Source of the DNA: Tubulanus polymorphus
Taxonomy: Eukaryota > Animalia > Nemertea
NCBI RefSeq assembly: GCF_964204645.1
Contig: NW_027437438.1
Span: forward strand, 1 to 64,000
Direction of reading: 5' to 3'
DNA length: 64,000 bases
In this document: in pieces, positions 8,006-34,169 of the stretch
How positions within the stretch are numbered: position 1 is the stretch's first letter
How the letters are laid out: every line of letters begins with the position of its first letter
The notes under the pieces: model-generated
Databases searched by the model: none
What the model was told of the DNA's origin: nothing
What the model saw: only the letters and a program-made list of their open reading frames with translations
Position numbers and translations under genes: made by a program

Positions 8006-8226
8006 AGTAATAGGGATAATAGGCTTTCATACCAAAGGTCGAGGGGTCGAGCTCGTAAAAAAATGAAAATAAAAATAATTTACAGTTGAATTAGTCGCGC
8101 ACACTCCTAATCCAACTGTAAATTATTATTATTTTCATTTTTTTACTCACTCGCCCCTTCAACCTTTGATATGAAAGCCTATTATCCCTATTACTCTTAA
8201 AATATTCATATACATGAATAACATTT
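8006..8226. repeat. Left TIR; 8006-8195 is itself a fold-back palindrome
   Basis: agtaatagggataataggctttcat...atgaaagcctattatccctattact. 8157-8226 is the approximate reverse complement of 29468-29540. Confidence 0.9.
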
Positions 8227-8240
8227 AAAAGTGTAAGCTC

Positions 8241-8885
8241 TTATAAAATAGATATATAGATAAATTTACAACAATATTTTATAAACTTATATTCATAGGG
8301 AAATTGTAGTCTCAGTAATAATTTTGAACCTTTATTATTCTTTAATTTATTCATATATTCATCATGTAATTCAGTAGGTATAATTTGATTTTCTTCCAAT
8401 GATTGTTGCATAGATTTTCTATCTTTGTTATAAAATAAAACAAGAAATCTTATATTCTCCCTAAAGTCTTTAACAATTGAATTATATTTTTGATTTAAAA
8501 CCCATGTTGTTATCCCGAAATGTCTTCCAGAGAAAGCTAAATAACATAACTCACTTTCTCTCACTTTTGAATCATGTAAATTAGCGCAATCATCTACAAT
8601 GAATAATGTATTTGATCCTTTATAAGTATCAATTGCTATTTTTATACAATTATCCAAATTTTCTTTTACTATTTTAGGATCTAATATAATAAACTTTTTC
8701 ATCTTAACTATATCTCTATTATATGTTTTATTCATTTCATAAATAGGACAGAATAATATTATATTATCAAAATGATTCTTATAAATAGTTTCTAACAAAT
8801 CTAATATGAAATGTGTTTTACCACAGTTTGTTACTCCAGTAACTAACATATTATGCGGTTCAAATATAAATAAATCTTTATTCAT
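8241..8885 (-). CDS. A32/FtsK-like DNA packaging ATPase
   Basis: Walker A GVTNCGKT, Walker B FIVDD, arginine finger SGRH, motif C VLNQ; 214 aa open. Confidence 0.92.
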   Translation of the reverse strand: MNKDLFIFEPHNMLVTGVTNCGKTHFILDLLETIYKNHFDNIILFCPIYEMNKTYNRDIVKMKKFIILDPKIVKENLDNCIKIAIDTYKGSNTLFIVDDCANLHDSKVRESELCYLAFSGRHFGITTWVLNQKYNSIVKDFRENIRFLVLFYNKDRKSMQQSLEENQIIPTELHDEYMNKLKNNKGSKLLLRLQFPYEYKFIKYCCKFIYISIL

Positions 8886-9969
8886 TTATTCTTTTAATTT
8901 TACTAGATAAAATCCATTCATTAAATTTATCATCGTATCCTTTATATTTCACCAAAGAATACTTTTTTCCTTTAAGAGTTTTTAATTTCAATACTTTTTC
9001 TATTTTGTATTCTATTTCATCTCGATTTGGTACAAATGATAATTCTTGTTCATAGAAATAACCTAACATTTCTTCATCTTTTAGATCTTCTAGTTTATAA
9101 ACAAATGGTTTAGTTAATATTATCTTTTTAATCTTGAATATTTCTTCTGTAAAATTTGGGGTATAACCTTTATAAAATGTTTTTCTATATTTAGATATTC
9201 TAACGTGTTGTCCAATTTTAAATTTAGGTTCACCAAAATCATGTGTAACAAACGCACCATATAAATTATTCCAAACTATTTCTGAATTATCTTCTTTTCT
9301 AGCTTGTATAGGTTTCATATTTATAGAACTATGTTTAGAATTATTATAACCTTTCACTAAATCATCTAACACATCGATATATTTATATGTTTCATTAGCA
9401 GTAAAATATTTCCACATTCTAGTTTTCAATGTTTTATTAAATCTTTCTATAATAGATGCTTTTTTAACTGAATGTGTTGAAAAATATTCCACATCGTTAT
9501 CAGATAATAGTTTTTTAAAATGTTTGTTATAGAATTCCTTACCTTCATCAAATTGTATCTTATCTGGAATGGCTTCTTTAAATATAGATTTAAAAGCATT
9601 TGTCACTTCTTTTCTAGTTTTATTTTTGATTGGAATTGACCATGCGTATCTACTGAATATGTCTATAACATTTAATATCCAGAAATATCCTTTGTTGTAT
9701 TCTTCTAAGTTCTTCATATCAATTAAATCTGCTTGCCATTGTTGATCGATATATGAAACCATAACTTTTCTTGTTAAATAAGTTTTATCCATTTTCTTAT
9801 GGATTTGATATGTTGGTTGATTTTGTAACCATGATTTTAATTCATTATATTTTATATCACCATTTTCATTATCAGATTTAATTTTATTCCATAATTCTGA
9901 AACGTTAGAATATGATACTTCACTTTCTGGATTGTAATATAAATCTCTTAAATATTGTTCTTTTTTCAT
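8878..9969 (-). CDS. Retroviral-like (rve, DDE) integrase with C-terminal chromodomain
   Basis: WQADLIDM, VIDIFSRYAW, QFDEGKEF, IERFNKTLK; chromo-like YKIEKVL...LVKYKGYDDKFNEWI; 363 aa open. Confidence 0.95.
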   Translation of the reverse strand: MKKEQYLRDLYYNPESEVSYSNVSELWNKIKSDNENGDIKYNELKSWLQNQPTYQIHKKMDKTYLTRKVMVSYIDQQWQADLIDMKNLEEYNKGYFWILNVIDIFSRYAWSIPIKNKTRKEVTNAFKSIFKEAIPDKIQFDEGKEFYNKHFKKLLSDNDVEYFSTHSVKKASIIERFNKTLKTRMWKYFTANETYKYIDVLDDLVKGYNNSKHSSINMKPIQARKEDNSEIVWNNLYGAFVTHDFGEPKFKIGQHVRISKYRKTFYKGYTPNFTEEIFKIKKIILTKPFVYKLEDLKDEEMLGYFYEQELSFVPNRDEIEYKIEKVLKLKTLKGKKYSLVKYKGYDDKFNEWILSSKIKRINE

Positions 9970-9977
9970 CTTATTTT

Positions 9978-10932
9978 AATCCATTAATAATAATTTAGAT
10001 TTAGTTTCAATGGCTGTATGATTTGACTTATTTTCTGGTATAATAGGTTTATTATCATTGGAACCATTATTGTTATAATCAGATTTATACTTATATTTAT
10101 ATATTACACCGGATAATATAATAACTGTTACTAATCCAATTGTAATATATAATTTATAATTACTTCCAGCATTAGAAGAATTAGATGGATTATTATTTGT
10201 ATCAATATCAGGTGATTCATTTATATCAGTTAATTTCTTTTTCTTAGCTTTTTTAATTCTGAAGATCTTTTACCTAATTCTCTTGCCCATTTAATTTGTT
10301 TCTCGGATCTAGCCTTTTTCTTAACGGTATCACTCATTTATTTTAGTTAATTTTTGTTCTGATTCATTTTCTGTTTCACCATTTGGTTGTAGTACATCTG
10401 TTTCGTTCTTACCTGATTTATATTCCATAGGCTTGATGTTCGAAAATGTTATGACGCCAGTAGAAATTAATGTCATAACCGATCCTAATTGAAATGAAGC
10501 ATAGCCGACCCATTTTTGTAATTCAGTCATAACTAAGTAGTCATTTTTCAAATCACTATATAATTTATTTTCATCATTAATTGTCATTAACCGGTTACAT
10601 AATTTTGAATAACATTTTATAATACTATCTGAAATAGAATCATTTATTCGAGCCAATCTAGCTTCTTCATAAATCTTAAAATATTTTATTACTTTATTGG
10701 GTTTCATAGAGTCTAGTTCTTGAAAAGTAATGGTCTTAGTTAAAAATTGTTTAGATTTTCTGCCTGCAATTAGTAACTCAAGATGGTGTTTACAATATAA
10801 ATAGTATTCATAATCAATATTGTTATTAACTTGAATAGAATTAGAAACAACTGGATCCTTATTATCACTAATACCTAAATCATCTAATGTTATTTCAATA
10901 TCAATACTATTCTTACTCGATTTCTTTGACAT
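9978..10932 (-). CDS. Polinton hypothetical membrane-associated gene(s): 200-aa ORF (10330-10932) plus a disrupted downstream reading with a TM segment
   Basis: TAAATG start and hydrophobic C-terminal part. After the stop the sequence continues ...KWARELGKRS, shifts frame, then reads LYITIGLVTVIILSGVIYKY...LLLMD*. Confidence 0.55.
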
Positions 10933-12169
10933 TTATATTAGAGAAAAAAAGCAAAAAAATATTATAAGTATTATAAAATGATACTAGATAGTTAAAGTTA
11001 AAGAATTCTAGTATTGACTACTGATACTAGCTATTTCAATTTAAAGAATTTCTATTTGAATCTATTCAAAATATAAAGTATTCTCTTTTGAAAAGAAAGT
11101 ATTAAAAATATAATAGAATTCACTAGCTAGTTGAAGTTATAGTTTTTTAAATACTTTTTATTTAAATTAGGATTTAATATCTCACTACTATTGTCTATCT
11201 ATTAGGAGCAGTAATTATAACTGTCCAGATAAGTCATTTCCGATCCTTGATAATAAATCCTAAAACTGAAAATAAATTCAAAGAAACCACTGATGGAAAT
11301 ACTATTTCATAACCACACATATATTTTATTCTACAATCATTATCGATTTCCACATTCCAAGCCGCTCGGCAGCCGAGCGGTAAGGTATGCGTGGAATGCA
11401 GGAATCAATAAAGTATAATACAACATCTGTCACTGTGTGTGACATTAACAACAGCTGAATGACGCAATTGAAATTTCGGCAAACGTAATGCATTGAAAGC
11501 CTATACAGTAAGGCTAAACTGCTACAGTCTCACGAGTTGAAATATCCATTATTTCTGATTCCACATCCATCTATCTTCACTTTCTTGATTCAATGGCCTT
11601 CATTTTGTTATCTAAAAGATAAATATCTAGCGTAGAATAAAACTAACTTGAAGTTGTAGTTGTAAAATATTAATTACAGCACTTAAACATGACCATTTTG
11701 TGGCGCATCTTACCAGGATAAGTTTTACATGTTTAGCGTTTCCCAACGCCTTAATAACAACAAAAACAGTACTTACATTTATAACTGTAAACTCCTAAAA
11801 TTGTGTTTATAGAGAGAATATCCTATACGTTCCTATGCTTATGTGCTGCGCGTTTATAACTGCCAGTTATTCACTAGCTAAACACTGTCTGGTGCAACAG
11901 ATGTTCCTTTGTAATGTTATCGATTAATCCTTTTTAACTGAAATAGAACATTCGATCAATATTCAAATGAGATACACCCCATTCAACTGAATATGAAATG
12001 CGGCACAGATGTTTTTGTAAACAACCTAATACAATTACATACAGGCGGTTTGACATAGATCGAGAGTAACCGGTTTTCTAAGCGTTTAACATTCAACGTA
12101 TTTTTCATTATGTGTTAAATTCCATAATTCAACAAATGTCTTTGCTTTATCCAGTTGATCTAAATATAA

Positions 12170-12739
12170 CTATGAATCTAGTTTGTTAGATTTAATTATG
12201 TTTTCCTTCTTTTCTAAAGGTCTTAAATTCTTCCAACTCCAAATAAGTTTTTTATTGTATTCATCATTCATGTTAAATCTAGATATTGGTAACACGTGAT
12301 CAATATGAAAGTATTCACCATAATTATCTATATTCATTTTATCATCGAATTGAAATATAATCCATGATTTGAGAAATTCATCTGAACAACCCAATAAATT
12401 AGATAATGTTTCTGAATGTGTTTCTTTGTTGAATAATTGTGTTAATCTAGATCTTAAGCATTGTTTTAATCTAAAATTAATATCTGTTTGATATCTTACT
12501 CTCATATCTTCTGTCATATAATCATTGTAAGCTTCTCTATTATCTTCTCGATATTGTTTGGTATATAGTTTAGTACAAGTTTTACAGCAATATTGAAAAC
12601 CATCTTTGCTAATCTTACGCTTACTAAATTCTGTTAAAGCTAATTTATCTAATTCACACTTAGAACACTTCTTGTAGTATATATTTATGACGCCAGTGTT
12701 ATTTCTAATATTTATAGTATGTGGTTGTTCTGATTCCAT
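12170..12739 (-). CDS. HNH endonuclease with N-terminal Cys4 zinc ribbon, copy 1
   Basis: KKCSKC...CCKTC; LLGCS...QFD.KM...NYG..FHIDHVLP...NLRPL...EN..K.NK, a pattern I recognise from NCLDV/phage HNH nucleases. The frame stays open ~27 codons past the TAG, so the stop is likely premature. Confidence 0.8.
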   Translation of the reverse strand: MESEQPHTINIRNNTGVINIYYKKCSKCELDKLALTEFSKRKISKDGFQYCCKTCTKLYTKQYREDNREAYNDYMTEDMRVRYQTDINFRLKQCLRSRLTQLFNKETHSETLSNLLGCSDEFLKSWIIFQFDDKMNIDNYGEYFHIDHVLPISRFNMNDEYNKKLIWSWKNLRPLEKKENIIKSNKLDS

Positions 12740-12896
12740 TTATTATACATATTTTTTTACTAAATTTATTTTAGAAGTTATTCATTTATATGTTATTCAT
12801 GAATATGTATGAATTATTTCAATAAAACTTTACTAACACCTTTAATGTTTAAAAATCTAACTCATACAAATATAAATATTGAAATATGTTTAAAAT

Positions 12897-12968
12897 ATAC
12901 CTATGTATTAGATACCCTATTAGATACCCTATTAGATACCCTAATACCTGATACCCTATTAGATACCT
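12897..12968. repeat. 12-bp tandem repeat ATTAGATACCCT, ~5 imperfect units (second copy ~17574-17645)
   Basis: Seen directly; intergenic. Confidence 0.85.
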
Positions 12969-13026
12969 TAATTACTTAAAACCCCCTTTTTTATTTACTA
13001 TTATTTTATACAATTTTCAACCTTTA

Positions 13027-13868
13027 TTACTTTTTGAGTGTTAGATAATTACTTTCTGAATCACTTTCATCATCACTCTCCAATTCATCATCAGACCCTA
13101 ACAATTTATTCAAATGCTATACCGTATCTTCATAAATAATTGGTTTATTGATATACTTATTAGTCATCTCAACTATATCTTTATTTTCTGATTTAAGTTT
13201 CATAGAATCTTTATTATCAATGCGCTTTCCTGTATTTTCATTATTATCTATATAAGTGTTTGCTCCTAATATTTCATTTACAGTGTTTGATTCTAATATT
13301 TTATTAGCATCGGTTAAATCTAATTCATCTTTATTAGGTGTTGCTAATAATAAATCTTTATATAATTCTTTACCATTTACTTTTTGATTTGAAACAAACT
13401 TTGTAACATATCTAAATGGGTGTTCTATAAATTCTTTTAAACCAACACGTTCTATAACATTATTTATATGTACCCTTGTATTCATATGTTTATTCCAATT
13501 TGATGTAGCGTTTGAAAATTCGCCTTTACAATAATCACAATAATTTATATTTTCACTAACATTTAATATTATTGCATTATTAGATGTAGAAGGTATTACA
13601 TTATTAGATGTAGAAGGTATTACATTATTAGATGTAGAGGGTATTACATTATTAGATGTAGAAGGTATTACATTATTAGATGTAGAAGGTATTACATTAC
13701 TTAAATTATCAACAACACCACTTTTATTATTATCGATTTCTATTAGTTTAGTTTTATAAATTTTGAAAATAGGATCAAATATCAAAGCTATATTACAAGG
13801 TATTACATAATATAAACCATCAATGTATCGATGTATGGAATATGTTTATATACTTTACCACCTTCCAT
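13027..13868 (-). pseudogene. Zinc-finger protein with NNVIPSTS x5 repeat and acidic tail, copy 1
   Basis: TAAATG-MEGG start at 13868, frameshift near 13825, 24-bp repeats 13575-13699, CDYC..H..T..H finger, premature TAG at 13117, then DDELESDDES to a stop at 13027. Confidence 0.7.
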
Positions 13869-13900
13869 TTATTATATATATTTTTATTAAAGTTAAAATT

Positions 13901-15138
13901 TTAATACATAACACTATTTAATTGAGAATTTACAATATTTAATTGCGCGTCAGATATAATATAAATGTGCATTTTAAAATTTTCGATTCCTTTATTCTTT
14001 GTCATGAATAATTGTATTCCATCTTTGTGTTGTGTAATTTTTTTCCAGAACCATGTAATGAATTATCCTCTGTTGTTCTAAAATCTAACCATAATGCATA
14101 TTTATTACCGGTATAATAATCAATTTGATTAATGTTACAATTTTCAGATGATTTTACTTTTTCATTCAAAAAATGTTTTCTAATTTCTGGCGATTGATCA
14201 ATCATTCTCATTCCTTGACAAAATATTTTATTTGCTATTCCTTCGATAGTTATTTCTACTTTTGTTATTTCAGGATTATAATAATTATCAACATTTATTG
14301 CACCATTAGTATATTTTGCAATGGTAAAAAATATTAATATACCTTTAATAGATCTTCTTGGGAAGTTCTCATTAATAATTTCATCATTTGCATTAATAGT
14401 TACAGTTTTAAATTCATCAATATAATCATATAATAATGAAAATCCTTGATTGTATAGAATTTGAATTATACTTGAAATATTTTCATCAGTTACTGTATCA
14501 TATTCTAAACATATATTCGATAATTTATAACTCATATCTTTATTAACGCTAGATATTACGATTTCATTAACAGGAGCAAATGTTATTTCGAATATAACGT
14601 CTTCTTGAATTGCATATTTATATAAAGGCGCATTGTTATTTATCAATTCAAAGTCTAATGGAATTTTATATTTGCTTCCATAAATCTTTTTAATCAAATT
14701 ATCTGTGGCACGAGTTACTATTGCGTCATTAGCTCCTGATCTTAATTTATTTTGGATTTCTGATTGGATTCCTTGAAATATCATATTATTTCTATTTTCT
14801 TTAGTTAACCATAAATCTTTATAATGCATAAATAAATTATAATCATCTAATGAGAAAACTGTTTCTGGACCAATCTTTATTGTTAACTTTTTAATCAAAT
14901 ATCTTCCAACATTATCAACAACATAATTATTATTATTACCGGTTACTTTTATATCGGCTGATAAATAAATACTATTTGGAACATAAAAAGTATTTTGTGT
15001 TAATCGAGGAATTCTAACATATAAAGTTTCATCAGGATTAATATTAGAAGGGTTATGAGTAATTATATGATGTGATCTTTCTGCTTTAGCATTAGATATT
15101 CTATGATTCTTAGAAGGATTGATATAACTCCCACTCAT
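13901..15138 (-). pseudogene. Major capsid protein (putative double jelly-roll), copy 1, frameshifted near the C-terminus
   Basis: ~410 aa when repaired. ITHNPSNI...LYVRIPRL, VDNVGRYLIKKLTIKI and YALWLDFRT are typical of invertebrate Polinton-like MCPs. 1-bp deletion at ~14026; the homolog at 38387-38698 shows the intact end KDGIQL...NSVMY. Confidence 0.8.
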
Positions 15139-15158
15139 TTATTTAACAAAAAAATTAA

Positions 15159-15650
15159 TTATTTATTTTTGATCATGTTTACTAAACCAAAAATAATAGC
15201 ACTTACAACTGTAATTAAAAATAAAATAATATGTTCAGCAGCAAAGTTAATAATGTTTCCTGCAGATTTCAATATAAAACCAACAATTGATGCAATAACT
15301 CCTGGCAATGCTGCAGCAGATTTCTTTGATAGTTCCCATAAATATTTTGCTAATTTCTTTAAACCATCCTTAACTTTATCTTGTGTAGAATTAATATCAT
15401 TCGGGGGTTTATCTGGTTTATTTGGAGTAGGTGTAGATTTCAAAGCATTTGATATTGCTAAACCAATTGTTGTAAATACCATAGTTACAGATGTTAGAAT
15501 GGAAAGAATTGTTATACCTTCTAACTTAAATAATAATCTTATTCTGTCTTTTAATGATATTTTAGAATTTGGTTTTATCAACAAATCTTTAAAAATAACT
15601 TTTAATTTTTTAATATGATTAAGATCATATGATTTTAATAATGTATCTCT
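15159..15650 (-). pseudogene. 3' fragment of the 529-aa membrane protein created by the duplication
   Basis: Matches 19836-20327; truncated at the duplication junction. Confidence 0.9.
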
Positions 15651-16846
15651 ATCTATGATACTAGATAGTTAAAGTTAAAGAATTCTAGTATTGACTACTG
15701 ATACTAGCTATTTCAATTTAAAGAATTTCTATTTGAATCTATTCAAAATATAAAGTATTCTCTTTTGAAAAGAAAGTATTAAAAATATAATAGAATTCAC
15801 TAGCTAGTTGAAGTTATAGTTTTTTAAATACTTTTTATTTAAATTAGGATTTAATATCTCACTACTATTGTCTATCTATTAGGAGCAGTAATTATAACTG
15901 TCCAGATAAGTCATTTCCGATCCTTGATAATAAATCCTAAAACTGAAAATAAATTCAAAGAAACCACTGATGGAAATACTATTTCATAACCACACATATA
16001 TTTTATTCTACAATCATTATCGATTTCCACATTCCAAGCCGCTCGGCAGCCGAGCGGTAAGGTATGCGTGGAATGCAGGAATCAATAAAGTATAATACAA
16101 CATCTGTCACTGTGTGTGACATTAACAACAGCTGAATGACGCAATTGAAATTCCGGCAAACGTAATGCATTGAAAGCCTATACAGTAAGGCTAAACTGCT
16201 ACAGTCTCATGAGTTGAAATATCCATTATTTCTGATTCCACATCCATCTATCTTCACTTTCTTGATCCAATGGCCTTCACTTTGTTATCTAAAAGATAAA
16301 TATCTAGCGTAGAATAAAACTAACTTGAAGTTGTAGTTGTAAAATATTAATTACAGCACTTAAACATGACCATTTTGTGGCGCATCTTACCAGGATAAGT
16401 TTTACATGTTTAGCGTTTCCCAACGCCTTAATAACAACAAAAACAGTACTTACATTTATAACTGTAAACTCCTAAAATTGTGTTTATAGAGAGAATATCC
16501 TATACGTTCCTATGCTTATGTGCTGCGCGTTTATAACTGCCAGTTATTCACTAGCTAAACACTGTCTGGTGCAACAGATGTTCCTTTGTAATGTTATCGA
16601 TTAATCCTTTTTAACTGAAATAGAACATTCGATCAATATTCAAATGAGATACACCCCATTCAACTGAATATGAAATGCGGCACAGATGTTTTTGTAAACA
16701 ACCTAATACAATTACATACAGGCGGTTTGACATAGATCGAGAGTAACCGGTTTTCTAAGCGTTTAACATTCAACGTATTTTTCATTATGTGTTAAATTCC
16801 ATAATTCAACAAATGTCTTTGCTTTATCCAGTTGATCTAAATATAA

Positions 16847-17416
16847 CTATGAATCTAGTTTGTTAGATTTAATTATGTTTTCCTTCTTTTCTAAAGGTCT
16901 TAAATTCTTCCAACTCCAAATAAGTTTTTTATTGTATTCATCATTCATGTTAAATCTAGATATTGGTAACACGTGATCAATATGAAAGTATTCACCATAA
17001 TTATCTATATTCATTTTATCATCGAATTGAAATATAATCCATGATTTGAGAAATTCATCTGAACAACCCAATAAATTAGATAATGTTTCTGAATGTGTTT
17101 CTTTGTTGAATAATTGTGTTAATCTAGATCTTAAGCATTGTTTTAATCTAAAATTAATATCTGTTTGATATCTTACTCTCATATCTTCTGTCATATAATC
17201 ATTGTAAGCTTCTCTATTATCTTCTCGATATTGTTTGGTATATAGTTTAGTACAAGTTTTACAGCAATATTGAAAACCATCTTTGCTAATCTTACGCTTA
17301 CTAAATTCTGTTAAAGCTAATTTATCTAATTCACACTTAGAACACTTCTTGTAGTATATATTTATGACGCCAGTGTTATTTCTAATATTTATAGTATGTG
17401 GTTGTTCTGATTCCAT
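16847..17416 (-). CDS. HNH endonuclease, copy 2
   Basis: Protein identical to 12170-12739. Confidence 0.8.
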   Translation of the reverse strand: MESEQPHTINIRNNTGVINIYYKKCSKCELDKLALTEFSKRKISKDGFQYCCKTCTKLYTKQYREDNREAYNDYMTEDMRVRYQTDINFRLKQCLRSRLTQLFNKETHSETLSNLLGCSDEFLKSWIIFQFDDKMNIDNYGEYFHIDHVLPISRFNMNDEYNKKLIWSWKNLRPLEKKENIIKSNKLDS

Positions 17417-17703
17417 TTATTATACATATTTTTTTACTAAATTTATTTTAGAAGTTATTCATTTATATGTTATTCATGAATATGTATGAATTATTTCAAT
17501 AAAACTTTACTAACACCTTTAATGTTTAAAAATCTAACTCATACAAATATAAATATTGAAATATGTTTAAAATATACCTATGTATTAGATACCCTATTAG
17601 ATACCCTATTAGATACCCTAATACCTGATACCCTATTAGATACCTTAATTACTTAAAACCCCCTTTTTTATTTACTATTATTTTATACAATTTTCAACCT
17701 TTA

Positions 17704-18545
17704 TTACTTTTTGAGTGTTAGATAATTACTTTCTGAATCACTTTCATCATCACTCTCCAATTCATCATCAGACCCTAACAATTTATTCAAATGCTATACC
17801 GTATCTTCATAAATAATTGGTTTATTGATATACTTATTAGTCATCTCAACTATATCTTTATTTTCTGATTTAAGTTTCATAGAATCTTTATTATCAATGC
17901 GCTTTCCTGTATTTTCATTATTATCTATATAAGTGTTTGCTCCTAATATTTCATTTACAGTGTTTGATTCTAATATTTTATTAGCATCGGTTAAATCTAA
18001 TTCATCTTTATTAGGTGTTGCTAATAATAAATCTTTATATAATTCTTTACCATTTACTTTTTGATTTGAAACAAACTTTGTAACATATCTAAATGGGTGT
18101 TCTATAAATTCTTTTAAACCAACACGTTCTATAACATTATTTATATGTACCCTTGTATTCATATGTTTATTCCAATTTGATGTAGCGTTTGAAAATTCGC
18201 CTTTACAATAATCACAATAATTCATATTTTCACTAACATTTAATATTATTGCATTATTAGATGTAGAAGGTATTACATTATTAGATGTAGAAGGTATTAC
18301 ATTATTAGATGAAGAGGGTATTACATTATTAGATGTAGAAGGTATTACATTATTAGATGTAGAAGGTATTACATTACTTAAATTATCAACAACACCACTT
18401 TTATTATTATCGATTTCTATTAGTTTAGTTTTATAAATTTTGAAAATAGGATCAAATATCAAAGCTATATTACAAGGTATTACATAATATAAACCATCAA
18501 TGTATCGATGTATGGAATATGTTTATATACTTTACCACCTTCCAT
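17704..18545 (-). pseudogene. Zinc-finger/repeat protein, copy 2
   Basis: Duplicate at +4677 with the same lesions. Confidence 0.7.
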
Positions 18546-18577
18546 TTATTATATATATTTTTATTAAAGTTAAAATT

Positions 18578-19815
18578 TTAATACATAACACTATTTAATT
18601 GAGAATTTACAATATTTAATTGCGCGTCAGATATAATATAAATGTGCATTTTAAAATTTTCGATTCCTTTATTCTTTGTCATGAATAATTGTATTCCATC
18701 TTTGTGTTGTGTAATTTTTTTCCAGAACCATGTAATGAATTATCCTCTGTTGTTCTAAAATCTAACCATAATGCATATTTATTACCGGTATAATAATCAA
18801 TTTGATTAATGTTACAATTTTCAGATGATTTTACTTTTTCATTCAAAAAATGTTTTCTAATTTCTGGCGATTGATCAATCATTCTCATTCCTTGACAAAA
18901 TATTTTATTTGCTATTCCTTCGATAGTTATTTCTACTTTTGTTATTTCAGGATTATAATAATTATCAACATTTATTGCACCATTAGTATATTTTGCAATG
19001 GTAAAAAATATTAATATACCTTTAATAGATCTTCTTGGGAAGTTCTCATTAATAATTTCATCATTTGCATTAATAGTTACAGTTTTAAATTCATCAATAT
19101 AATCATATAATAATGAAAATCCTTGATTGTATTGAGTTTGAATTATACTTGAAATATTTTCATCAGTTACTGTATCATATTCTAAACATATATTCGATAA
19201 TTTATAACTCATATCTTTATTAACGCTAGATATTACGATTTCATTAACAGGAGCAAATGTTATTTCGAATATAACGTCTTCTTGAATTGCATATTTATAT
19301 AAAGGCGCATTGTTATTTATCAATTCAAAGTCTAATGGAATTTTATATTTGCTTCCATAAATCTTTTTAATCAAATTATCTGTGGCACGAGTTACTATTG
19401 CGTCATTAGCTCCTGATCTTAATTTATTTTGGATTTCTGATTGGATTCCTTGAAATATCATATTATTTCTATTTTCTTTAGTTAACCATAAATCTTTATA
19501 ATGCATAAATAAATTATAATCATCTAATGAGAAAACTGTTTCTGGACCAATCTTTATTGTTAACTTTTTAATCAAATATCTTCCAACATTATCAACAACA
19601 TAATTATTATTATTACCGGTTACTTTTATATCGGCTGATAAATAAATACTATTTGGAACATAAAAAGTATTTTGTGTTAATCGAGGAATTCTAACATATA
19701 AAGTTTCATCAGGATTAATATTAGAAGGGTTATGAGTAATTATATGATGTGATCTTTCTGCTTTAGCATTAGATATTCTATGATTCTTAGAAGGATTGAT
19801 ATAACTCCCACTCAT
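18578..19815 (-). pseudogene. Major capsid protein, copy 2, same frameshift
   Basis: Duplicate at +4677. Confidence 0.8.
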
Positions 19816-19835
19816 TTATTTAACAAAAAAATTAA

Positions 19836-21425
19836 TTATTTATTTTTGATCATGTTTACTAAACCAAAAATAATAGCACTTACAACTGTAATTAAAAATA
19901 AAATAATATGTTCAGCAGCAAAGTTAATAATGTTTCCTGCAGATTTCAATATAAAACCAACAATTAATGCAATAACTCCTGGCAATGCTGCAGCAGATTT
20001 CTTTGATAGTTCCCATAAATATTTTGCTAATTTCTTTAAACCATCCTTAACTTTATCTTGTGTAGAATTAATATCATTCGGGGGTTTATCTGGTTTATTT
20101 GGAGTAGGTGTAGATTTCAAAGCATTTGATATTGCTAAACCAATTGTTGTAAATACCATAGTTACAGATGTTAGAATGGAAAGAATTGTTATACCTTCTA
20201 ACTTAAATAATAATCTTATTCTGTCTTTTAATGATATTTTAGAATTTGGTTTTATCAACAAATCTTTAAAAATAACTTTTAATTTTTTAATATGATTAAG
20301 ATCATATGATTTTAATAATGTATCTCTTTCTTCTTTTTGTAATTTTATGTTATATTTTAAATCATCTGTTTCTTTTTCTAAAGCTAACTTTCTGCTTTCA
20401 TAATTAGCTTCCTCGATTGATTGAAGATTTTTATCTAATTTTAATTGTTCTAATTTTTCATTTGCGATAGCAAATTCTTTTTCTAACATGGTTATTTTAG
20501 AAAATCTCATATTAATATTAGCATTTTCATCAGCTGATTCTTGAATACCTTTAATTTCTCTTCGTGTTTGTTCAGGAAATGCTTCCAATTCATCATCAGT
20601 TAATTTAAGAAATCCTTTTTCTAGTAAAGATTGTATTCGATTTATTCCAGTTTCAGTGCCGGGTGTATCTAAAATACTATTCATCTCTTCGTCAAATGAA
20701 TGAACTGCATCAAACATTTTATCATAATGTTTCACTAATTCTAATTGATTTGAATCATTATCAATTTGTTGAATATCTCTTCTCGATGTTTCTGGTGTTG
20801 AAGATCTTAATTTATTTAATCGATCTCTATACTCTTCCATTTCTGTTTCTGAATTTGTATTTATCATTTTTAATAAGTTATCAATTCTTTCACTGAATAC
20901 TCCTATATTATCCTTTCTTTCTTCTTTTGTAATATCAGTTATTTCATTACTAATACTTATTCTCTTAATTCTTTCTGTTTCTAAATTTTTCAAAGTTGAT
21001 TCCGCTATTATTTTAGGTAGTTTTGTTCTATGATCAGTGATATCAATATAATAATCACCATCCAAATTATAATAACATTTACCTTTAAAAAGTTTTAAAT
21101 CTTCTATTAAAAGTTCAGCACCTCTATTACTTATATTATACCCAGATCTTTCAAATGCAGGTTTGAATTTATAAATATATTCATTATAATCTAATCTTTT
21201 TTTTACTAAACCTGGGTCAAAATTTTCAGTAGGTATTCTCGATATAGTTCTTCTATCATGTTCTTCTGTTGATGTGGCTTTAGAACCACTATCTGCTAAA
21301 TTAGAATTATATTCTATTTTATTATCATTACTAAAACTTGTTTCATCAAAATCAGGTGGTTGTTCATCACTTATACCGGGTTCATCTAAAGGATCCAATG
21401 GAATATCTTCTCCACCTTCTGCCAT
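19836..21425 (-). CDS. 529-aa protein: acidic N-terminus, coiled coil, multi-hydrophobic C-terminus (putative virion membrane/entry protein)
   Basis: Open ORF with TAAATG start; hydrophobic segments GITILSILTSVTMVFTTIGLAI, AAALPGVIALIVGFIL and IILFLITVVSAIIFGLV. Homolog in element 2. Confidence 0.75.
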   Translation of the reverse strand: MAEGGEDIPLDPLDEPGISDEQPPDFDETSFSNDNKIEYNSNLADSGSKATSTEEHDRRTISRIPTENFDPGLVKKRLDYNEYIYKFKPAFERSGYNISNRGAELLIEDLKLFKGKCYYNLDGDYYIDITDHRTKLPKIIAESTLKNLETERIKRISISNEITDITKEERKDNIGVFSERIDNLLKMINTNSETEMEEYRDRLNKLRSSTPETSRRDIQQIDNDSNQLELVKHYDKMFDAVHSFDEEMNSILDTPGTETGINRIQSLLEKGFLKLTDDELEAFPEQTRREIKGIQESADENANINMRFSKITMLEKEFAIANEKLEQLKLDKNLQSIEEANYESRKLALEKETDDLKYNIKLQKEERDTLLKSYDLNHIKKLKVIFKDLLIKPNSKISLKDRIRLLFKLEGITILSILTSVTMVFTTIGLAISNALKSTPTPNKPDKPPNDINSTQDKVKDGLKKLAKYLWELSKKSAAALPGVIALIVGFILKSAGNIINFAAEHIILFLITVVSAIIFGLVNMIKNK

Positions 21426-21440
21426 TTACATAATAAAAAA

Positions 21441-22753
21441 TTAAAATTTAAAATATAATATTCCTCCGATTACAATTCCTATACAAGTTAAAGCTAATTT
21501 AGTATTTTCATGGGATTTATTATCATCATTAGTTTTGATTATATCATGTTGAATATTATCAGTTTTTATATTTTCTGATGTATTGTAATCTTTTATTTTA
21601 GAATCATTATTTAATTTAATATTATTAGTTTTAGTTTCAGTTGATTGAATATGTTTTTTATTTTTTTCACCTTCCATTAATTTTGGAGCAGTAATTATCT
21701 TTTTATTTATATCATTCAATCCAAATGAATTATTTATTGTTGCAGTTTTAATTAGATTATTGTAACCAATTATATTTCCCATCTTTAATACTAAATCATT
21801 AGAAATAATGAATAGATTAGGGCCTATACAATAATTTAATCTAATATGTGATTTATCTAAATAATTTTGATATCTTACCATGTTTTCTGGAATCGATCTA
21901 TTTTTATCATTATGAATTGAATCTTCGAATAATACTTTGAATTGTTTCTGCGCATCGAATGAAGTGTTATCATTTCCAATTATTGGGGATCTTGTTTCAA
22001 CTTGCGCACCTAAAATACAAATTAAATAAGTTCTAATAGATTGATTTATTCTTTGTATACCAGCTTTAGTAAAACCTTCACCATTTTCTAAAATGAAATT
22101 AACCCAACCATTATTGTTTTGTTGTTGTATATTATTATAATATTTTGGTAATTCATTCCAATTTAGAGTTCTTATATCTGAATTTGTCATTATTTTTCCA
22201 AATTCTTTAGTATATAATATTCCTAATCCACCCATTGTTCCAATTTTTGCTCTAAAATCTTTATTTGAATTAATATTAAATTCATTACATATTTTATAAA
22301 ACCTAGAAAAATTAATATTATTATTCAATTCTTTAAAATATTTTGAACCTGGTAGAGGACATTCTAATTCATCTAATATTAATTTTATTTGAAAATATGT
22401 ATGAAATCTAAAAAGTGATAACATCAATAGTAAACTTGGTTTGTTTAAATGATCATTCCAACTAATTCCACATCCTATTGTTGCGCAATAAACAGCAAAA
22501 TTTAATTGGTTCTGCCAATACTTCATATTAGATTTTAATAACCATTGTTTTGCCTCATTTAAATCTATTTTCCATCTTTACATGAAAATTATTACTTTCA
22601 GTAACATAAAAGTAAGTAATAAGTAATATATAAATCAATTAATGAATTTAACACTTCATTTCTATATGTAATATCTTTATTAAAATCTATTGCTGGAATA
22701 TTATATTTAATTGATTTATTATATTGGAAAGCTTTTGGAAAACTATCTGCCAT
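21441..22753 (-). pseudogene. Conserved Polinton hypothetical protein (WQNQLNFAVYCATxGCG motif) with C-terminal TM anchor; N-terminus disrupted
   Basis: 361-aa ORF 21441-22526 plus upstream TAAATG-MADSFP start at 22753, which matches MEDSFP at 34620. Confidence 0.7.
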
Positions 22754-22769
22754 TTATATAATTAAAAAA

Positions 22770-23158
22770 TTAATAATTTATTAATTCTTTTAATAATTTA
22801 TCTTGTTCTTCAACTGTTATATGGCCATTTAAACTTATTATATAATCTAGTGTATTCTTTAATTTATTAATTTCTTTTATATTAGTTTTAATTCTTTCTT
22901 TATTACTTTTTATATTCAATTTTGAACTTATACCAGTTAAAACACTTGAACTTAATCCTAACACACCAATTGATATAGCTAAAGGTGTTAATGGGCTGAA
23001 TATTGCTAGAAATGTTATTACAGAACTAATTGTAACCGAACCACTTATAATCAAATAATATATAATTTTACTTTTTAAATATTTTTTCTTTTTTATCTTT
23101 AAGTCACTTTCAAATTCTAATATTTGTTTGATATTCTGTTATCAACTTTATCATCCAT
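22770..23158 (-). pseudogene. Two-TM coiled-coil small protein with internal deletion
   Basis: Homolog of the intact 144-aa ORF 34170-34604. Confidence 0.7.
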
Positions 23159-23178
23159 TTATTTAGCCAAAAAAATTA

Positions 23179-23599
23179 CTAATTAGTAAACTTATAAGCA
23201 ACAAATATAACTGTTCCACCTAAAATCCAAATTATTTCATATTTCTTCTGTTCATTACTTGGGGTATAATAATCTGATAATTTAGGTTTGAATAGATGTA
23301 ATTTTTCTTTATTGGTTACTGCGTTATATAAACTCATTGCATCATCAACTGATTGAAAATCTCTATGTGAAATCTGCTGATCATATAATTCTTTATTGAT
23401 GTAATCCATATAGTTTTGTCTCTTTTCTCTATATTCTTCTGCAGCTTTATTATATTTTTCTAATGCTAAGTTATGTCTTTTTTGTTCTGATAATGATCCA
23501 TTTTTATCAATATGCTTAAATAAATAAATAACCACCACCAGTAAATGCTAAAGCGTTAACAATTGCCGATCCTATAATAGTTATAACTGCAGAAGCCAT
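23179..23599 (-). pseudogene. ~140-aa protein with N- and C-terminal hydrophobic segments, frameshifted
   Basis: Homolog of intact 33728-34150 (MASA...VNALAFTGG, EQKRHN, KPKLSDYY). Confidence 0.75.
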
Positions 23600-23623
23600 T
23601 TATTTAGTAAAATAATTACGCAT

Positions 23624-23830
23624 TTATATGGGAGGAATATATTTTTGTTTCTCCAAATAATCAATAGTTAAATTAGATAAAGTAACTGCTAATGTTAATT
23701 TTAAAATATCATTTATATCAAATCTATCAACATTAACACTTCCCATTTTGAATACTTTTTTTAATACCATTGAATAACCAACGGTTCCAACTGATAGTAA
23801 GCTCCATTATATAATCCAGTTATTATCCAC
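23624..23830 (-). pseudogene. ~70-aa small hydrophobic protein
   Basis: LSVGTVGYSMVLKKVFKMG...LTIDYLEKQKYIPPI*; conserved at 33512-33703. Confidence 0.55.
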
Positions 23831-23847
23831 TTATTATCACTGATTTA

Positions 23848-24201
23848 TTAATCAAAAAAATTACTATTTTCAAAATATTTAGTTAACTTATTTATGATTA
23901 ATTCAACATTTATTTCATTACTAGTTTCATTTGTATATATTTCAATTATTATTTTTTTAATATCATCTATAATAAAATCTTCATCTAATTCATAAAATCT
24001 TAAAGATTCTCTAATTAAATTAGTAATCTTTTCTACATTAAAAGTTTCTTTATCTATTGTTTTTTCATACTCAAATGTTGTTTCATTAGAAAATGTAATA
24101 TTTTTGATATGTGTAATTACATCAGTAATGTTAAATTTCATTTCTTTCTCATGTTTAAAATCAAATCCAAAACATATGCTCGGCCCAACAGTTATATTCA
24201 T
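23848..24201 (-). CDS. Hypothetical 117-aa protein
   Basis: Open ORF with TAAATG start and tight spacing in the gene row. Confidence 0.6.
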   Translation of the reverse strand: MNITVGPSICFGFDFKHEKEMKFNITDVITHIKNITFSNETTFEYEKTIDKETFNVEKITNLIRESLRFYELDEDFIIDDIKKIIIEIYTNETSNEINVELIINKLTKYFENSNFFD

Positions 24202-24218
24202 TTATATAGTGAAAAAAA

Positions 24219-24977
24219 TTACTCTCTACATCTTATAACTAATTCACATATCACAGGAAAGTTATTCAAATCAATTAAATAACCATTATGATTTCTTATT
24301 TCTAATTTAAAATTATTAAATTTAGGAATGCAAGGTTTAAAATCACATTCTGTTAAATTATAATTTATTTGAGTTCCAAATTGTTTAACATTTTTAGCGG
24401 TAAAATATTTAGTATACTAGAATTACAAATTGTTTCTTTAGTTGCTTCGAAAGTTTTTGTAGGCTCGATTAAATTGCAATAAATATAAAAGTGTGTAAAA
24501 GGTATTATATTTGAATTACCATCTACGTTTCCTGTAACAGTATCTGGTGCAATTCCTAACAGTTTAGCTATAGGTTTTTTTTACCATAAATGCATGTTGA
24601 CTTTCATCATATACCTTTATTTTAATTTTATTTGTGCTATCACTTTTTATAAATCTAATCAAAAATGTATCTTCTCTTCTAATTTTCAACCGTGCTCTTC
24701 TATTAATTTCTTGAGCTAATGTTTCTAAATTATATAATCCTGGTTTTAAAATTATATGAAACCATTTATTTACATTTCTAATATGAATTAAAAAAGTATT
24801 ATCTTCAATAGTTTTATCCGTTATATTATAAAAAGAATTACATAAACTTATATTTACTAATTTTAAATCTACACAATTCTTAAATTCTCTATCTAATTGA
24901 ACTAGTAAATTATGTGATTTATAATTTGTAAGTCTTCTAGAATCTACAAATATTCTGTATTCTTTTAATTCTACCAT
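24219..24977 (-). pseudogene. Minor capsid (penton-like single jelly-roll) protein, frameshifted
   Basis: NSFYNI...NTF...LKPGLYNLETL...LLGI...FYIYCNLI...LEIRNHNGYLIDLNNFPVICELVI, the motif order of Polinton minor capsid proteins. Confidence 0.7.
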
Positions 24978-24994
24978 TTATTTTACATATTTTC

Positions 24995-25348
24995 TTATTC
25001 GAAATCTATTTCATGGTGCCCCTTTTCATTCTTACTTTTGTATACGAAATAGAAATCACCAGAACATAATTCTTCTAGGTCTTCACTTGATAATCTATGA
25101 AATCTATCTGGTAAATATGTTCTGAATTTATGTGTATTTCCTTTTAATCCTTCATATTCTAAGTGTATAACTAATTGATCTCCATAGTTATTAGTAACTG
25201 TATCAATATTTGTAATTAGATATTTCTTATGAATTGTTAATTCTGTTAACTTTTTGAATTTATAATCTACAGATTTTACATTTGTAGTATCTTTTATTCT
25301 ATCTAGAAATAATTAGTTTTTCTCACTGTGCGTCTGTTTACTCTCCAT
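24995..25348 (-). pseudogene. Small putative OB-fold ssDNA-binding protein with one in-frame stop; not in the ORF track
   Basis: 118 codons, TAAATG start, TAA at codon 12; FKKLTEL...YLITNIDTVTNNYGDQLVIHL...FRTYLPDRF; immediately downstream of pPolB. Confidence 0.5.
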
Positions 25349-25377
25349 TTATAATACATATTTTTATTAAAATTTGA

Positions 25378-28300
25378 TTAACACGTTAGAATTCTTTTCA
25401 TTATCTCGTTCTCTTTTGTTTCTTCTCTTTTAAATTTTAAGTATTCATCTAAATTACAACCATAAGCAACTGTATGAATTCCATCATCTAAAATATATCT
25501 TTTATCATCAAATGGGTTTAGACTTATCTTTTCAATTTCTTCAATAAATATTTCATGATCTTCAGATCTTAAACATCTCATCTTATGTTTTCTAACTTCT
25601 TCATTGAATATACAATTGATGTAATCTTTGAAATGAATATTCTTTTCTACTACACTTTTGGTTATTCCTTTTAACTTTTTAGTTTCATGAGTTTTAGTTT
25701 AATATGAATACAATTTAGATCTAATACCTATGAACTCTATCATTTCTTCACCACCTAATTCATCTTTGAATTTACCGGGAACTTTTTTATTATCATTGCT
25801 AAACAATTCATGATCTTTAGGATAGTTACTGAAATCAAAATGATGTTTTAATGTTTTTAAATCATCAGTTATGTTATCAGTTTTTATCTTTAATATGTAA
25901 GAATCGGTATCAAAATATAATATTTCTATATGTTTTTCTTCAAAAAGTGGTTGTAATACATTATAATAGAATTCATACATTAGTAATTTTGATAATTCTA
26001 AAACTGAAGCGCCAACATAGATTGGTTTATTAAATTTCATAGAAGTTCTCCTCATTTTAACTGCGGCTAAATTTTCATCAAATATTCTGTTACCTAAGAA
26101 CTTAGGATATGATTGTAAATGCCTTATCCTTTTACCATTACTAACTAACTCAATATCATTTCTATTTCTAATATTTTCACAAGTCTTACCATAGAATGCA
26201 TTATTCATTAACTTGAAGAAATCTTTTTCGAAATCAGTTTTAGCTTTAGTTCTCTGTTTGGTGTTGAAATCTATATATTTTTCTAACCACTTAGATTGAC
26301 TAAATGAAATATATCTATGTACTTTTTTTAGAATCATTCCTTGATTCAGATAAAACTTTAACATTCTATAATGTACTACATAATTATATTTATCTTCTTA
26401 AGTTACCATTAACTTTTCTGTATGAATATGATTTTCGGGTTTAATTCTTTTTTGGTAATTTGATAATTCTTCATGAGTTACAGTTTTATGTTCGGGACAG
26501 TAAGCTAGATTTCTAGATTTAAATTTAATATGTTCAGGATATTCCAAGTCTACAACAAAGAAGTAACCAGTATCTGAATCATCTGCAATATCTAGGATTC
26601 TTTTCTTCCAATCAAATTTATCATTATTTTCATTCTGTAAAACTTCACTTATTTCAAATACTCCATAAGGTTGTGGTTCCATCATTGCCCAACCATACAA
26701 ATTATTTGCATCTATATATAATAACTTATATCCAGGGTTATCATTTGCATTGAAATATCTATCCCCTAATACACCTGAAACTCCTCCTCTTATAGATTAT
26801 TCAAATAATAGTAATTGATCTATATCTGTTAACAAATCCATTTTTATATCTGTAAATCTTAATCCACAATCCCATGTTAAACCTGGACTTGAATAACAAT
26901 GACAAGGATCAATGTTAAAATATTTTAGGTTTACATCTCTAAACCTTTCGAATATATCAGTTAACAATAATACATCTGATTCTAAATATAAATCTACTAA
27001 TTGTCCATGATTTTCTATTTTGAAATGATTCCAAATATTCAATGTTCTATTATATACTTCATCTTTAACATATTCATTTTTAAATTCATCATAAAATTGT
27101 TCTTTCGATAATTCAGTAATGTTAAAATCATTATGATTTTCATAGAAAGAATATGGAATTGCTCCTTTATATCTCATTAATTGAAAATCATCATTATTTG
27201 GGTAATATTCTTTTAATATCTTTAATTCATCATCAACTAATGATTTTGATAAGTTATCTAATGAACTATTTAAAAATCTATATGAATCTATAAATCTTAG
27301 GCAACCAAATTGGAATTATATATAATTCTCAGATGTTTTAGCTAACATTCTAAATTTATAAGTTGGTATTTTATCTTTTGATCTATTTGAATTTAATCTT
27401 TCTATTTCATTATTGATTTCTTCTATTTTATGACAAAACTGTTTGATGAATAAATGTGCATCATATCCTGATAGATTATGAAATATAACTGGTACAAAAT
27501 TAATTTTCTTAGCTTGTAAGTTACAATTCTCATGTGCAGCGCCTCTAAACTTTCCATTCAAATGATCATGGTCTCTTACTTTTTTATCTTTATAATTAAA
27601 TATCTTTTCACAATAATAACATTTATCTGCAAACGCAAATTCTTCTTTATCTTCTTCTGTCATTATAATTTCTTTATTTGTATTCAATAATTTACTAAAT
27701 CTTATTTCATATTCAATTAATAAGTCACAAAAATGATTGATAACATTTTCATTTCTGTAATTATAATATTCACTTTCAATTAGTTCTGGATAATCAGATT
27801 TTATATATAACCCGAAGGCTGCAGCTGATTGATGAATCTTTTTAATAGTATTTGTTTTTGGTGGTTCATCTGAAAAATCATTTTCATTAGAATTTAATTT
27901 CTTTCTTTTATAATATATTTCTTTTCTATCTTGATCAGTTAGTTCTTTATTTAATGATTCAAAATCTCCATATATAACAAATGGAACTTTATTTTTGTAA
28001 TCATATTTTTTGAATTCTAATATTTTATCTTTTTCATTTGGTAAAACTTATTTACAATAATCATGATTTTCACATAATTGTTTATGATTTAATAATGTAC
28101 TTTCATTACTGAATCTATGTAAACATTTTCTACAAAGATATATTTGATTATGGTGATCACTTTCTGTTCTAAAGAATAAATCTATTTGTTTAATCTACAT
28201 ATAATGATTCTCATAATATAATATATCTATAACATCGTTTGAATCATAATCTTTTGATAGATATAAAGGTTCTAATGTATAATGTTTTATATTGTTACCT

Positions 28301-29418
28301 TTTGTATTTGGTAATTTGATTAAATCAAATACATTTATTCTTAAATTAATATCTCTTTCTATTTTTGGGATGTTTTTAATTCTAACAGGATACTTATCTA
28401 TCTTATAATTATTTTCAAATGGTTTATAATGAGTTAATCTAAAACTATGTGTAATATCTTCTGTTGGATGTAAGCAACTTATAATTGTCCATAGAAAACA
28501 TTTATCATCAAAATTTTGTACATTTATAACAGCATTAGTTTTAAATGGTAGTTTAATATAACTCGATGCTTCAATATCTGGTTCTTTATAATATGATACA
28601 TTATTTTCATCAATTGGTTTTGATTTAGTTAACTTATTATATTTTGTGTCATAAACATGTAAAGTCATGAATATTATTTCATCAAATATTAAACCAGACC
28701 CTTCAAAATATTTCTCTTCTATTTTAGTTTTTACTTCATTATAACATTTATCTAATTTATCATCTATATGTTGTTTAGATATAATATGTTGTGAATGAGA
28801 ATTTATATTATATATTGGTTTATCTTCAGATTTTATGAATTTAACTTTAGAAGATATACTAATTTTAGGGTATTCAACATCAGTTATTATTTTTATTATT
28901 TCTTTCATATTTTCTAAATGTTTTTTATTTTCTTCTAATGTTTTTCCTTTATGAAACTTAAACTCGATAGCTGCTGGACCAATATCACTTTTAAATGCTT
29001 CGGTTATTTCTATATCTTTTTTATTATCTAATGAATTAATATAATTTCTTACATCTTCCATGTATGGTCTTTTATTGTTTAATTTATTTCTTATTCTTTT
29101 AATTGTCTTATGTTTCTTATCATTATCATTATCAAAATAATCTTCACCTAAAATATCATTATTCATATTTCTAATATGACTTTTAGATTTTAAATGTTCT
29201 TTATAATATCTTTTATCACTGAATGATTGATTACATGTATCACATTTGTATGTTTCTTTTTCATTCTTTAATTCCTCTAATTTAGTTTCTAAAATATCAT
29301 CTTTATATTCTAGTTTCAATTTATTCTCTAAATGTGTTTTAGTTTTATTGTGTCTTGCTTTTTGGGATTTATCTATATTGATATTACATGTTGGACAGTA
29401 GTACTTATTTGCTTCCAT
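25378..29418 (-). pseudogene. Protein-primed family B DNA polymerase (pPolB) with N-terminal zinc fingers and an EndoVII/HNH insertion
   Basis: One 1347-codon frame with six internal stops (28195, ~28048, 27316, 26797, 26398, 25699). ExoI YGDFES, RDHDHLNGKFRGAAHENCN, ExoII FHNLSGYD, ExoIII YLESDV, IRGG, YIDANNLYG, KLMNNAFYGK, YFDTDS, KLYSY. Confidence 0.95.
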
Positions 29419-29467
29419 TTTAATACTAAATTTTTTATTAAAATTGATTTTAGAAGTTCAATGATTT

Positions 29468-29907
29468 ATATGTTATTCATATATGTGAATATTTTAAGAG
29501 TAATAGGGGTAATAGGCTTTCGGGTTAAAGGTTGAATGGTCGAGTTCATTAATAACATATATTAAAAGTAATTAAAAAACTATAATATATTTTCATAACC
29601 GTGTGTATTTCAGTTGAACAATAGAATAATTATTATCATTTGAATATATTTGATTATATGAATTTGTGTATTGTAATTAAATCAATTGGTCGCGGAGCGG
29701 AGCGGTAGCGAAGTGGAGCGACCAATTGATTTAATACAATATGCTTTTTATATTATTGATATCTTAGAATAAATATTTAGTTTTAATATAAAATACACAC
29801 GGTTATGAAAATATATTATAGTTTTTTAATTACTTTTAATATTTTGTTTTTTAATGAGCTCGACCTTTCGACCTTTGATCTGAAAGCCTATTACCCCTAT
29901 TACTACT
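29468..29907. repeat. Right TIR; 29499-29904 is a ~400-bp fold-back palindrome with a GC-rich centre
   Basis: agtaataggggtaataggctttc...gaaagcctattacccctattact(act). Inner arms aaaagtaattaaaaaactataatatattttcataaccgtgtgtattt and its complement; centre caattggtcgc...gcgaccaattg. Confidence 0.9.
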
Positions 29908-34150: not shown

Positions 34151-34169
34151 TAATTTCTTTTCTAAATAA

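Follow-up and report, generated by a model that had tools for sequence, protein, structure and literature searches.

A start-codon-fused TAAATG signal in an endogenous Polinton of Tubulanus polymorphus resembles the late promoters of large DNA viruses

Which RNA polymerase reads the genes of the virus-like elements that are integrated in animal genomes? Animal Polintons are debated as autonomous nuclear viruses, as transposons or as parasites of giant viruses, and a precisely placed promoter bears directly on this debate; according to the cited section of PMC11131425, virions of endogenous polintoviruses have so far not been directly observed. We analyzed a stretch of 64,000 nucleotides (nt) from the nemertean Tubulanus polymorphus (contig NW_027437438.1, positions 1 to 64,000; here termed the window). 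It contains a decayed Polinton-type endogenous virus with its genes on the minus strand (element 1, 8006..29907) and a more decayed and rearranged sister copy (element 2, 33512..42133). Most genes of element 1 begin at the hexamer TAAATG, which the initial annotation of the window had taken for a poxvirus-type late initiator. What stood of this reading is that the motif resembles in its behavior a DNA-level promoter at each gene, of the late large-DNA-virus type; the poxvirus identity was not supported.

Every start codon for which a TAAATG had been proposed was found to have TAA directly 5′ of the ATG, and an additional TAAATG start, overlooked previously, was located at 10337. With duplicated genes counted once, TAA preceded the ATG in 13/15 element 1 genes with an ATG start (12/14 from start-context scoring plus the gene at 21425, which was counted separately); the start of a 16th, small gene near 23.8 kb is decayed, and this gene was left uncounted. 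The exceptions were those already named, namely, the integrase gene, with AAG before its ATG, and the gene for protein-primed DNA polymerase B (pPolB), with TAAA. The other coding-strand ATGs of element 1 were preceded by TAA in 22/377 cases (Fisher p = 2e-12 for 12/14), and the enrichment over AT background, which had been put forward as a check, thus held at the gene starts. Across the whole window, the hexamer showed only a slight excess over shuffled sequence (131 vs 106 +/- 9); therefore, the signal is positional. In most genes, the assigned starts match the N termini of intact relatives. The claim that element 2 shares the motif was correct for all six starts (33728, 34170, 34620, 35939, and 38731 on the plus strand and 40819 on the minus strand), but these do not constitute independent evidence, since this copy is ~90% identical to element 1.

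A comparison of 73 starts resolved a two-part signal: a core of A followed by T spans −18 to −10, and the initiator TAAAT is joined directly to the start codon. An A was present at −18 in 55 starts, a T at −12 in 64, and a T at −3 in 66; past a relaxed spacer near −9/−8, the sequence reads W-W-W-A-T-A-A-ATG, with G at +4 in 49/73. The exact TAA-ATG occurred in 65/73 starts and TAAAT within −7..+2 in 69/73. The GC content dropped to 0.06 at −18..−11 and 0.03 at −7..−4, compared to 0.24-0.28 in comparison bands at −40..−29, −23..−19, and −10..−8. Loci of at least 30% GC showed values of 0.11 and 0.06 in the two blocks vs 0.34-0.38 in the bands. A weaker AT-rich band was observed at −28..−24 (GC 0.13). 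The T-tract reported to follow the preceding stop codon is real, but it is anchored to the ATG and not to that stop. Same-strand genes lie between −140 and +325 nt apart, and in just one of 34 junctions, the one with a spacer of zero, is the TAA the upstream stop. Because the distance to the ATG is constant whatever lies upstream, we consider the signal to be anchored to the ATG. Seven head-to-head gene pairs, which include those of the close relatives L009 and L010, displayed TAA at 13/14 starts, and five of the pairs have 19-30 nt between the two ATGs. The near-palindromic core in these short spacers could serve both divergent genes.

This geometry bears on a role in translation or 3′-end formation, i.e., stop-restart translation on polycistronic RNA, or AATAAA acting as a poly(A) signal together with a U-rich element. 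In favor of such a role, the TAA forms a stop codon in the reading frame of the ATG, the window T-tract often lies after the previous stop, and no hexamer is more frequent at −5..+1 than AATAAA (29/60). However, TATAAA is nearly as common (22/60), the motif also occurs inside upstream coding sequence, with overlaps of up to 140 nt, and it is kept at head-to-head starts, which have no upstream gene on the same strand. The anchoring to the ATG and the retention in head-to-head pairs argue against both versions, and we regard this explanation as highly improbable.

Two further poxvirus-like features were tried and not upheld. A split into two promoter classes (A-core for enzymes and T-core for virion genes, like intermediate vs late promoters of poxviruses) appeared in the close clade (p = 0.001 for 13 vs 18 promoters, which are not independent), whereas distant relatives (p = 0.5) and a comparison per gene family (p = 0.22) did not reproduce it. 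The poxvirus early terminator TTTTTNT was rarer than expected in coding strands (7 vs 19.5 and 6 vs 16.4), but runs of A and plain runs of T were depleted to the same degree; since this reflects a general avoidance of homopolymers, we claim no such terminator. Five-nucleotide runs of A or of T were ~1.2- to 2-fold depleted relative to synonymous shuffles in genes of the TAAATG clade, a depletion that was not clear in the small outgroup sets.

Is the motif a property of this copy or of a lineage? Relatives were collected from a capsid alignment and comprised 19 metagenomic loci plus two from genome contigs. L003 and L011, which nearly duplicate L002 and L012, and the fragmentary L021 were left out, as were open reading frames (ORFs) that were open at the 5′ end or that, following a break, began at an internal ATG. 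The 14 scored loci, with capsid identities of 48-74%, carried TAA-ATG at 53/59 starts. Among these, the 11 AT-rich loci showed it at 44/48 starts vs a background of 75/1690, and the three loci of 36-44% GC showed it at 9/11 starts vs 8/370. Base composition fails to explain the motif because it is kept in the latter loci. The window and the 14 TAAATG loci form one capsid clade (98/94 support), outside of which L015, L018, and L019 had TAA-ATG at 0/8 starts; by eye, several of their starts carry a TATAG-like word. In L020, all four gene starts (4/4) read AAA-ATG, the same form as pPolB of the window. These patterns suggest that the initiator is lineage-specific and that sister lineages have promoters of their own. 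Scans of IMG/VR proteins, plasmids, and phages yielded no relatives. A further candidate, L022, matched the bidirectional-promoter pattern by chance, with no ORF beginning at TAAATG. Capsid homologues (cluster P0047, L020, and L021) that are filed under Bartonella sp. assemblies and under two metagenome-assembled genomes, one bacterial and one archaeal, are probably eukaryotic contamination.

The initial annotation had noted that no RNA polymerase or capping gene is visible. In agreement with this, Pfam and PHROGs scans of the proteins of the window and its relatives detected no RNA polymerase, no capping enzyme, and no VLTF3. We therefore weighed whether an unrecognized protein of the element transcribes its genes or steers the host machinery, or whether the motif is left over from a helper dependence in the past. 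Several conserved genes lack a family match, the largest unassigned soluble domain folds confidently without resembling a known structure, a zinc-finger-like gene is conserved, and some coral polintoviruses carry VLTF3 (PMC11131425). Against self-transcription, the unassigned proteins are at most 529 residues long, six have predicted membrane helices, and none matches VLTF3 or a polymerase; against a relic, the motif is conserved across capsids that are just 48-55% identical. Taken together, self-transcription or a relic appears improbable to us.

The same start signal was found in viruses that do encode a polymerase. Two giant-virus bins (G001 and G002) contain genes for RNA polymerase, VLTF3, and an icosahedral capsid. 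Their capsid proteins match that of Singapore grouper iridovirus (6ojn/8hif) with E values of 1e-116 or better, followed by 7yjl, which we take to be a marseillevirus structure; the match to PBCV-1 (Paramecium bursaria chlorella virus 1) is far weaker than these. We infer that the bins belong in Pimascovirales. Stretches of the bins that had not been selected by motif carried TAAATG at 4/14 and 10/34 starts compared to a background of 28/685 and 33/1299. Like the Polinton clade, both bins have AT-rich sequence upstream of their starts and short bidirectional spacers, some of them nearly identical, with TAAATG at ~30% of starts; unlike in element 1, their capsid genes start with TAAAATG and TAACAATG instead of TAAATG, and the bins are unlinked to this host. 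The claim that the motif points to a poxvirus is thus not supported, and since these icosahedral, iridovirus-like bins use the signal, it is of a large-DNA-virus type rather than a poxvirus signature. Accordingly, a helper of the irido/marseille-like kind is no less plausible than a pox-like one. TAAATG starts and bidirectional spacers of 21-50 nt were also seen in the irido/marseille-like contigs L052, L054, L059, and L066-L068, and L052, iridovirus-like by its Pfam families, showed weak enrichment (3/9). Our literature search found no description of a TAAATG promoter for the irido/marseille-like group.

Comparison with characterized systems places the signal in the same range. The vaccinia late promoter has a T-containing core ~5-7 bp before TAAAT(G/A) (PMC5294985), and poly(A) leaders made by slippage have been described for poxviruses (PMC4542343, PMC6831550). 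Element 1 resembles poxvirus intermediate and late promoters in having TAAATG on the start codon, an AT core ~6 nt upstream, and a T at −3 (PMC5294985, PMC4542343). It differs from that promoter class in that the signal stands on ~90% of the genes, replication genes included, of an element without a polymerase. Among iridoviruses, the DNA polymerase promoter of invertebrate iridescent virus 6 has an essential AAAAT at −19..−15 followed by a T-rich stretch (PMC5294985), an arrangement similar to the core found here. Mavirus carries the late promoter of its helper upstream of all genes (PMC6723459). With mavirus and Sputnik, element 1 shares a double jelly-roll capsid, the lack of a polymerase, and one motif before nearly all genes, and with mavirus also the integrase and pPolB (PMC6723459). 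Unlike in mavirus, the motif is not the TCTA late motif of Cafeteria roenbergensis virus, no protease was detected, and the host is probably an animal and not a protist. Polinton-like viruses associated with entomopoxviruses have likewise been proposed as parasites of an animal-infecting large DNA virus; in contrast to element 1, they encode an adenovirus-type protease and no rve integrase (PMC11296320). The main text of that paper contains neither "promoter" nor "TAAAT" nor "motif", and "promoter" is equally absent from the main texts of PMC11131425, PMC11071296, PMC10120064, PMC8502044, PMC11161782, and PMC10748475. Literature searches that covered neither supplements nor subscription journals returned no report of the motif in Polintons, and a TAAATG promoter of these elements has apparently gone unreported so far.

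With moderate confidence, we propose that, in the manner of virophages, the genes of this clade are transcribed from these promoters by the RNA polymerase of a large DNA virus that infects the same cell. The element would sit integrated in the host genome through its own integrase. Upon infection by a nucleocytoplasmic large DNA virus (NCLDV), the AT core would be bound by post-replicative factors of that virus, and transcription would begin inside the AAA of the initiator. Slippage would then add a nontemplated poly(A) leader; the mRNA would thereby lack the T at −3, and its AUG would stand in a favorable context. Copying and packaging of the element would subsequently fall to its own genes for pPolB, the ATPase, and the capsid. 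The nucleotides around the start codon can be read along these lines. A G at +4 was present in 34/51 starts vs 48/228 internal ATGs (p = 8e-10), while −3 was T in 47/51, and a T at −3 is a poor Kozak context in animals. Translation context thus seems to be selected at +4 and overridden at −3, as if −3 were untranscribed, which would fit a −3 position that is part of the signal in the DNA and whose place in the mRNA is taken by an A leader. For the putative helper itself, a pox-like virus is a doubtful candidate, and an irido/marseille-like or another large DNA virus is a possible one that we hold tentatively.

Several points weigh against transcription by a helper. The giant-virus bins were located by a motif scan of IMG/VR, i.e., found using this very motif, and clear enrichment was seen in just 2/39 scanned loci (L059 and L054). 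The loci are related to each other, and pooled p-values therefore overstate independence, a problem of which the within-element counts are free. The motif is short and AT-rich, and convergence could account for its likeness to viral promoters. A nuclear phase is required for integration. Ordinary RNA-seq shows expression of hallmark genes of coral polintoviruses, and the cited part of that study reports no helper (PMC11131425). Finally, AATAAA was mildly avoided in the mid-GC TAAATG relatives (21 vs 29.2, with 8/300 shuffles as low).

The last three points would also favor a compact promoter or short-leader element for host RNA polymerase II, with TBP binding the AT tracts, in an autonomous adenovirus-like nuclear virus. 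The integrase implies nuclear access, avoidance of AATAAA is what host processing predicts, and the AT-rich band at −28..−24 lies near TATA distance from the ATG. On the other hand, nine-tenths of starts carry the unfavorable T at −3, and the divergent spacers of 19-30 nt are too small for two promoters plus leaders unless transcription starts inside the opposite gene. Moreover, viruses that encode a polymerase of their own use this signal too. In coding regions of the AT-rich clade, AATAAA was not avoided, at ~1 per 200 coding bases (observed vs expected, 56 vs 54.5 in the element and 111 vs 113.5 in its closest relatives); in outgroups, as in the mid-GC relatives, it was mildly avoided (6 vs 10.1 and 3 vs 6.7), and the avoidance test as a whole is equivocal. 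We regard transcription by host RNA polymerase II as rather unlikely.

What kind of element carries the signal? Element 1 has a GC content of ~22-27% without its insertion, compared to 33-46% across most of the flanks. Its terminal inverted repeats (8006-8080 vs 29828-29904) are 83% identical over 77 nt and lie within internal inverted repeats that make up the left terminus (8006..8195) and the right terminus (29499..29907). Each end is self-complementary (86% for 8006-8195 and 78% for 29499-29904), and either terminus could fold into a long hairpin. Polintons typically generate a target-site duplication of ~6 bp; the flanks of element 1 showed no matching duplication, the ends being decayed and the right flank rearranged. 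A tandem duplication of 4677 bp spans 10978..20331 (10978-15654 and 15655-20331, 99.8% identical) and is either genuine or an assembly artefact; it creates the duplicate starts 15138/19815, 12739/17416, and 13868/18545. At its boundary, ~1.1 kb of higher-GC (0.32) sequence at 10978-12100 and 15655-16777, with no further copy in the window, is probably a foreign insertion. Short GATACC-based repeats occupy 12911-12983 and 17588-17660, in an intergenic gap of the element.

All genes lie on the minus strand and, except where stated, start at TAAATG. An A32-type packaging ATPase (8241..8885; Pox_A32 E 3e-12) overlaps by 8 nt the end of the gene for an rve integrase with a chromodomain (8878..9969; rve E 1.5e-10; Chromo weak at E 1.2e-4, below its cut-off), which is the gene lacking TAA. 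They are followed by a small, broken predicted membrane protein whose start overlaps the upstream gene (9976..10337) and a conserved 200-residue protein with no assigned function (10330..10932). An HNH endonuclease-like gene (16847..17416, copy at 12170-12739), a broken gene for a zinc-finger-like protein with a 24-nt repeat (17794..18545, copy starting at 13868), and the major capsid gene (18679..19815, copy starting at 15138), whose frame stops early compared with relatives, lie in the duplicated block. Homologues of the HNH protein have no informative names, and its similarity to a protein of bin G002 (36% over 105 residues) was too weak to show gene exchange. Next to the capsid gene are genes for a 529-residue coiled-coil protein (19836..21425), with C-terminal membrane helices predicted from the hydropathy of its L001 homologue, and for a conserved protein of ~440 residues with a C-terminal membrane helix, which is broken (21441..22753). 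Further along are a broken predicted membrane protein (22770..23158), a broken protein with hydrophobic N and C termini (23179..23599), the small gene of ~75 codons with the decayed start (23624..23845), whose homologues have TAAATG in 4/4 clade loci, and a 117-residue protein with no assigned function (23848..24201). A broken gene at 24219..24977 (254 residues in L001) probably encodes a minor capsid protein, a label taken from size and position, with no significant family match in the Pfam and PHROGs scans. The series ends with a broken gene for a ~114-residue protein with no assigned function (24995..25348) and with pPolB (25378..29418), which starts with TAAAATG and combines N-terminal C2H2 fingers, an endonuclease VII-like domain, and a polymerase match on one piece (PF03175, E 4.6e-6). 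In total, six of the conserved genes encode predicted membrane proteins. A close relative additionally carries a deoxynucleoside kinase gene with a TAAATG start (L001:10340-10981, E 1.7e-31).

Since pPolB contains six internal stops and several further genes are broken, this copy is dead, and the suggestion that it acts as a defensive virus is unsupported. Element 1 nevertheless displays the core Polinton features. It resembles Maverick/Polintons and adintoviruses in its pPolB, rve integrase with chromodomain, ATPase, capsid, and terminal inverted repeats (PMC8502044, PMC11071296, PMC10120064, PMC11131425). It differs from them in its six predicted membrane proteins and in that Pfam found neither an adenain protease nor an OTU domain, nor any other protease among the element proteins, although remote homologues are possible. 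The intact capsid relative P0002 (74% identical) was modeled with a pLDDT of 89.6 as a double jelly-roll fold. In a fold search, it best matched iridovirus and PBCV-1 capsids (E ~1e-16), while one Adintovirus entry ranked 21st (11% identity) and the Sputnik and mavirus capsids ranked 46-49 (E 5e-11 to 8e-11), below NCLDV capsids. The element may belong with outlying cnidarian-type capsids. The 442-residue protein L001:2996-4324, which corresponds to window positions 21441-22753, has 1321 homologues and a confident model (pLDDT 84), with no match in BFVD or among PDB representatives (best Z 4.0). Its residues C94, C99, H122, and E162 are nearly invariant, and it might be an unrecognized maturation protease.

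Some neighboring features deserve mention. A 31-nt upstream cassette recurs at 12735-12765, 13864-13894, and 25344-25374 with 77-100% identity, preceding three unrelated genes (HNH, zinc finger, and the gene at 25348; repeat family D20), and the region upstream of pPolB resembles it by eye; this suggests that promoters may be copied between genes. Amid Polinton fragments between both elements lies a Penelope-like retroelement (30162-33102; reverse transcriptase and GIY-YIG domains), which carries a direct repeat (≥300 nt at 99%). The flanking sequence also encodes a tandem C2H2 protein, and both this protein and the retroelement suggest an animal host. A large GC-rich tandem array containing GATACC extends past element 2 (41690-44105).

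For the biology of these elements, the start signal widens the candidate helper groups from poxviruses to irido/marseille-like viruses. It is conceivable, at somewhat less than even chances, that the whole clade of animal-genome Polintons consists of provirophages of irido- or pox-like viruses and that the start word of each lineage, TAAATG in this clade and AAA-ATG or a TATAG-like word in its sisters, is a barcode of the helper family. If so, the range of helper-dependent endogenous viruses would reach beyond protists to animals, and the promoter type could be used to pair elements with their helpers. Invertebrates would then carry mavirus-like endogenous viruses that are triggered by a helper and that could be mapped from genome sequence alone.

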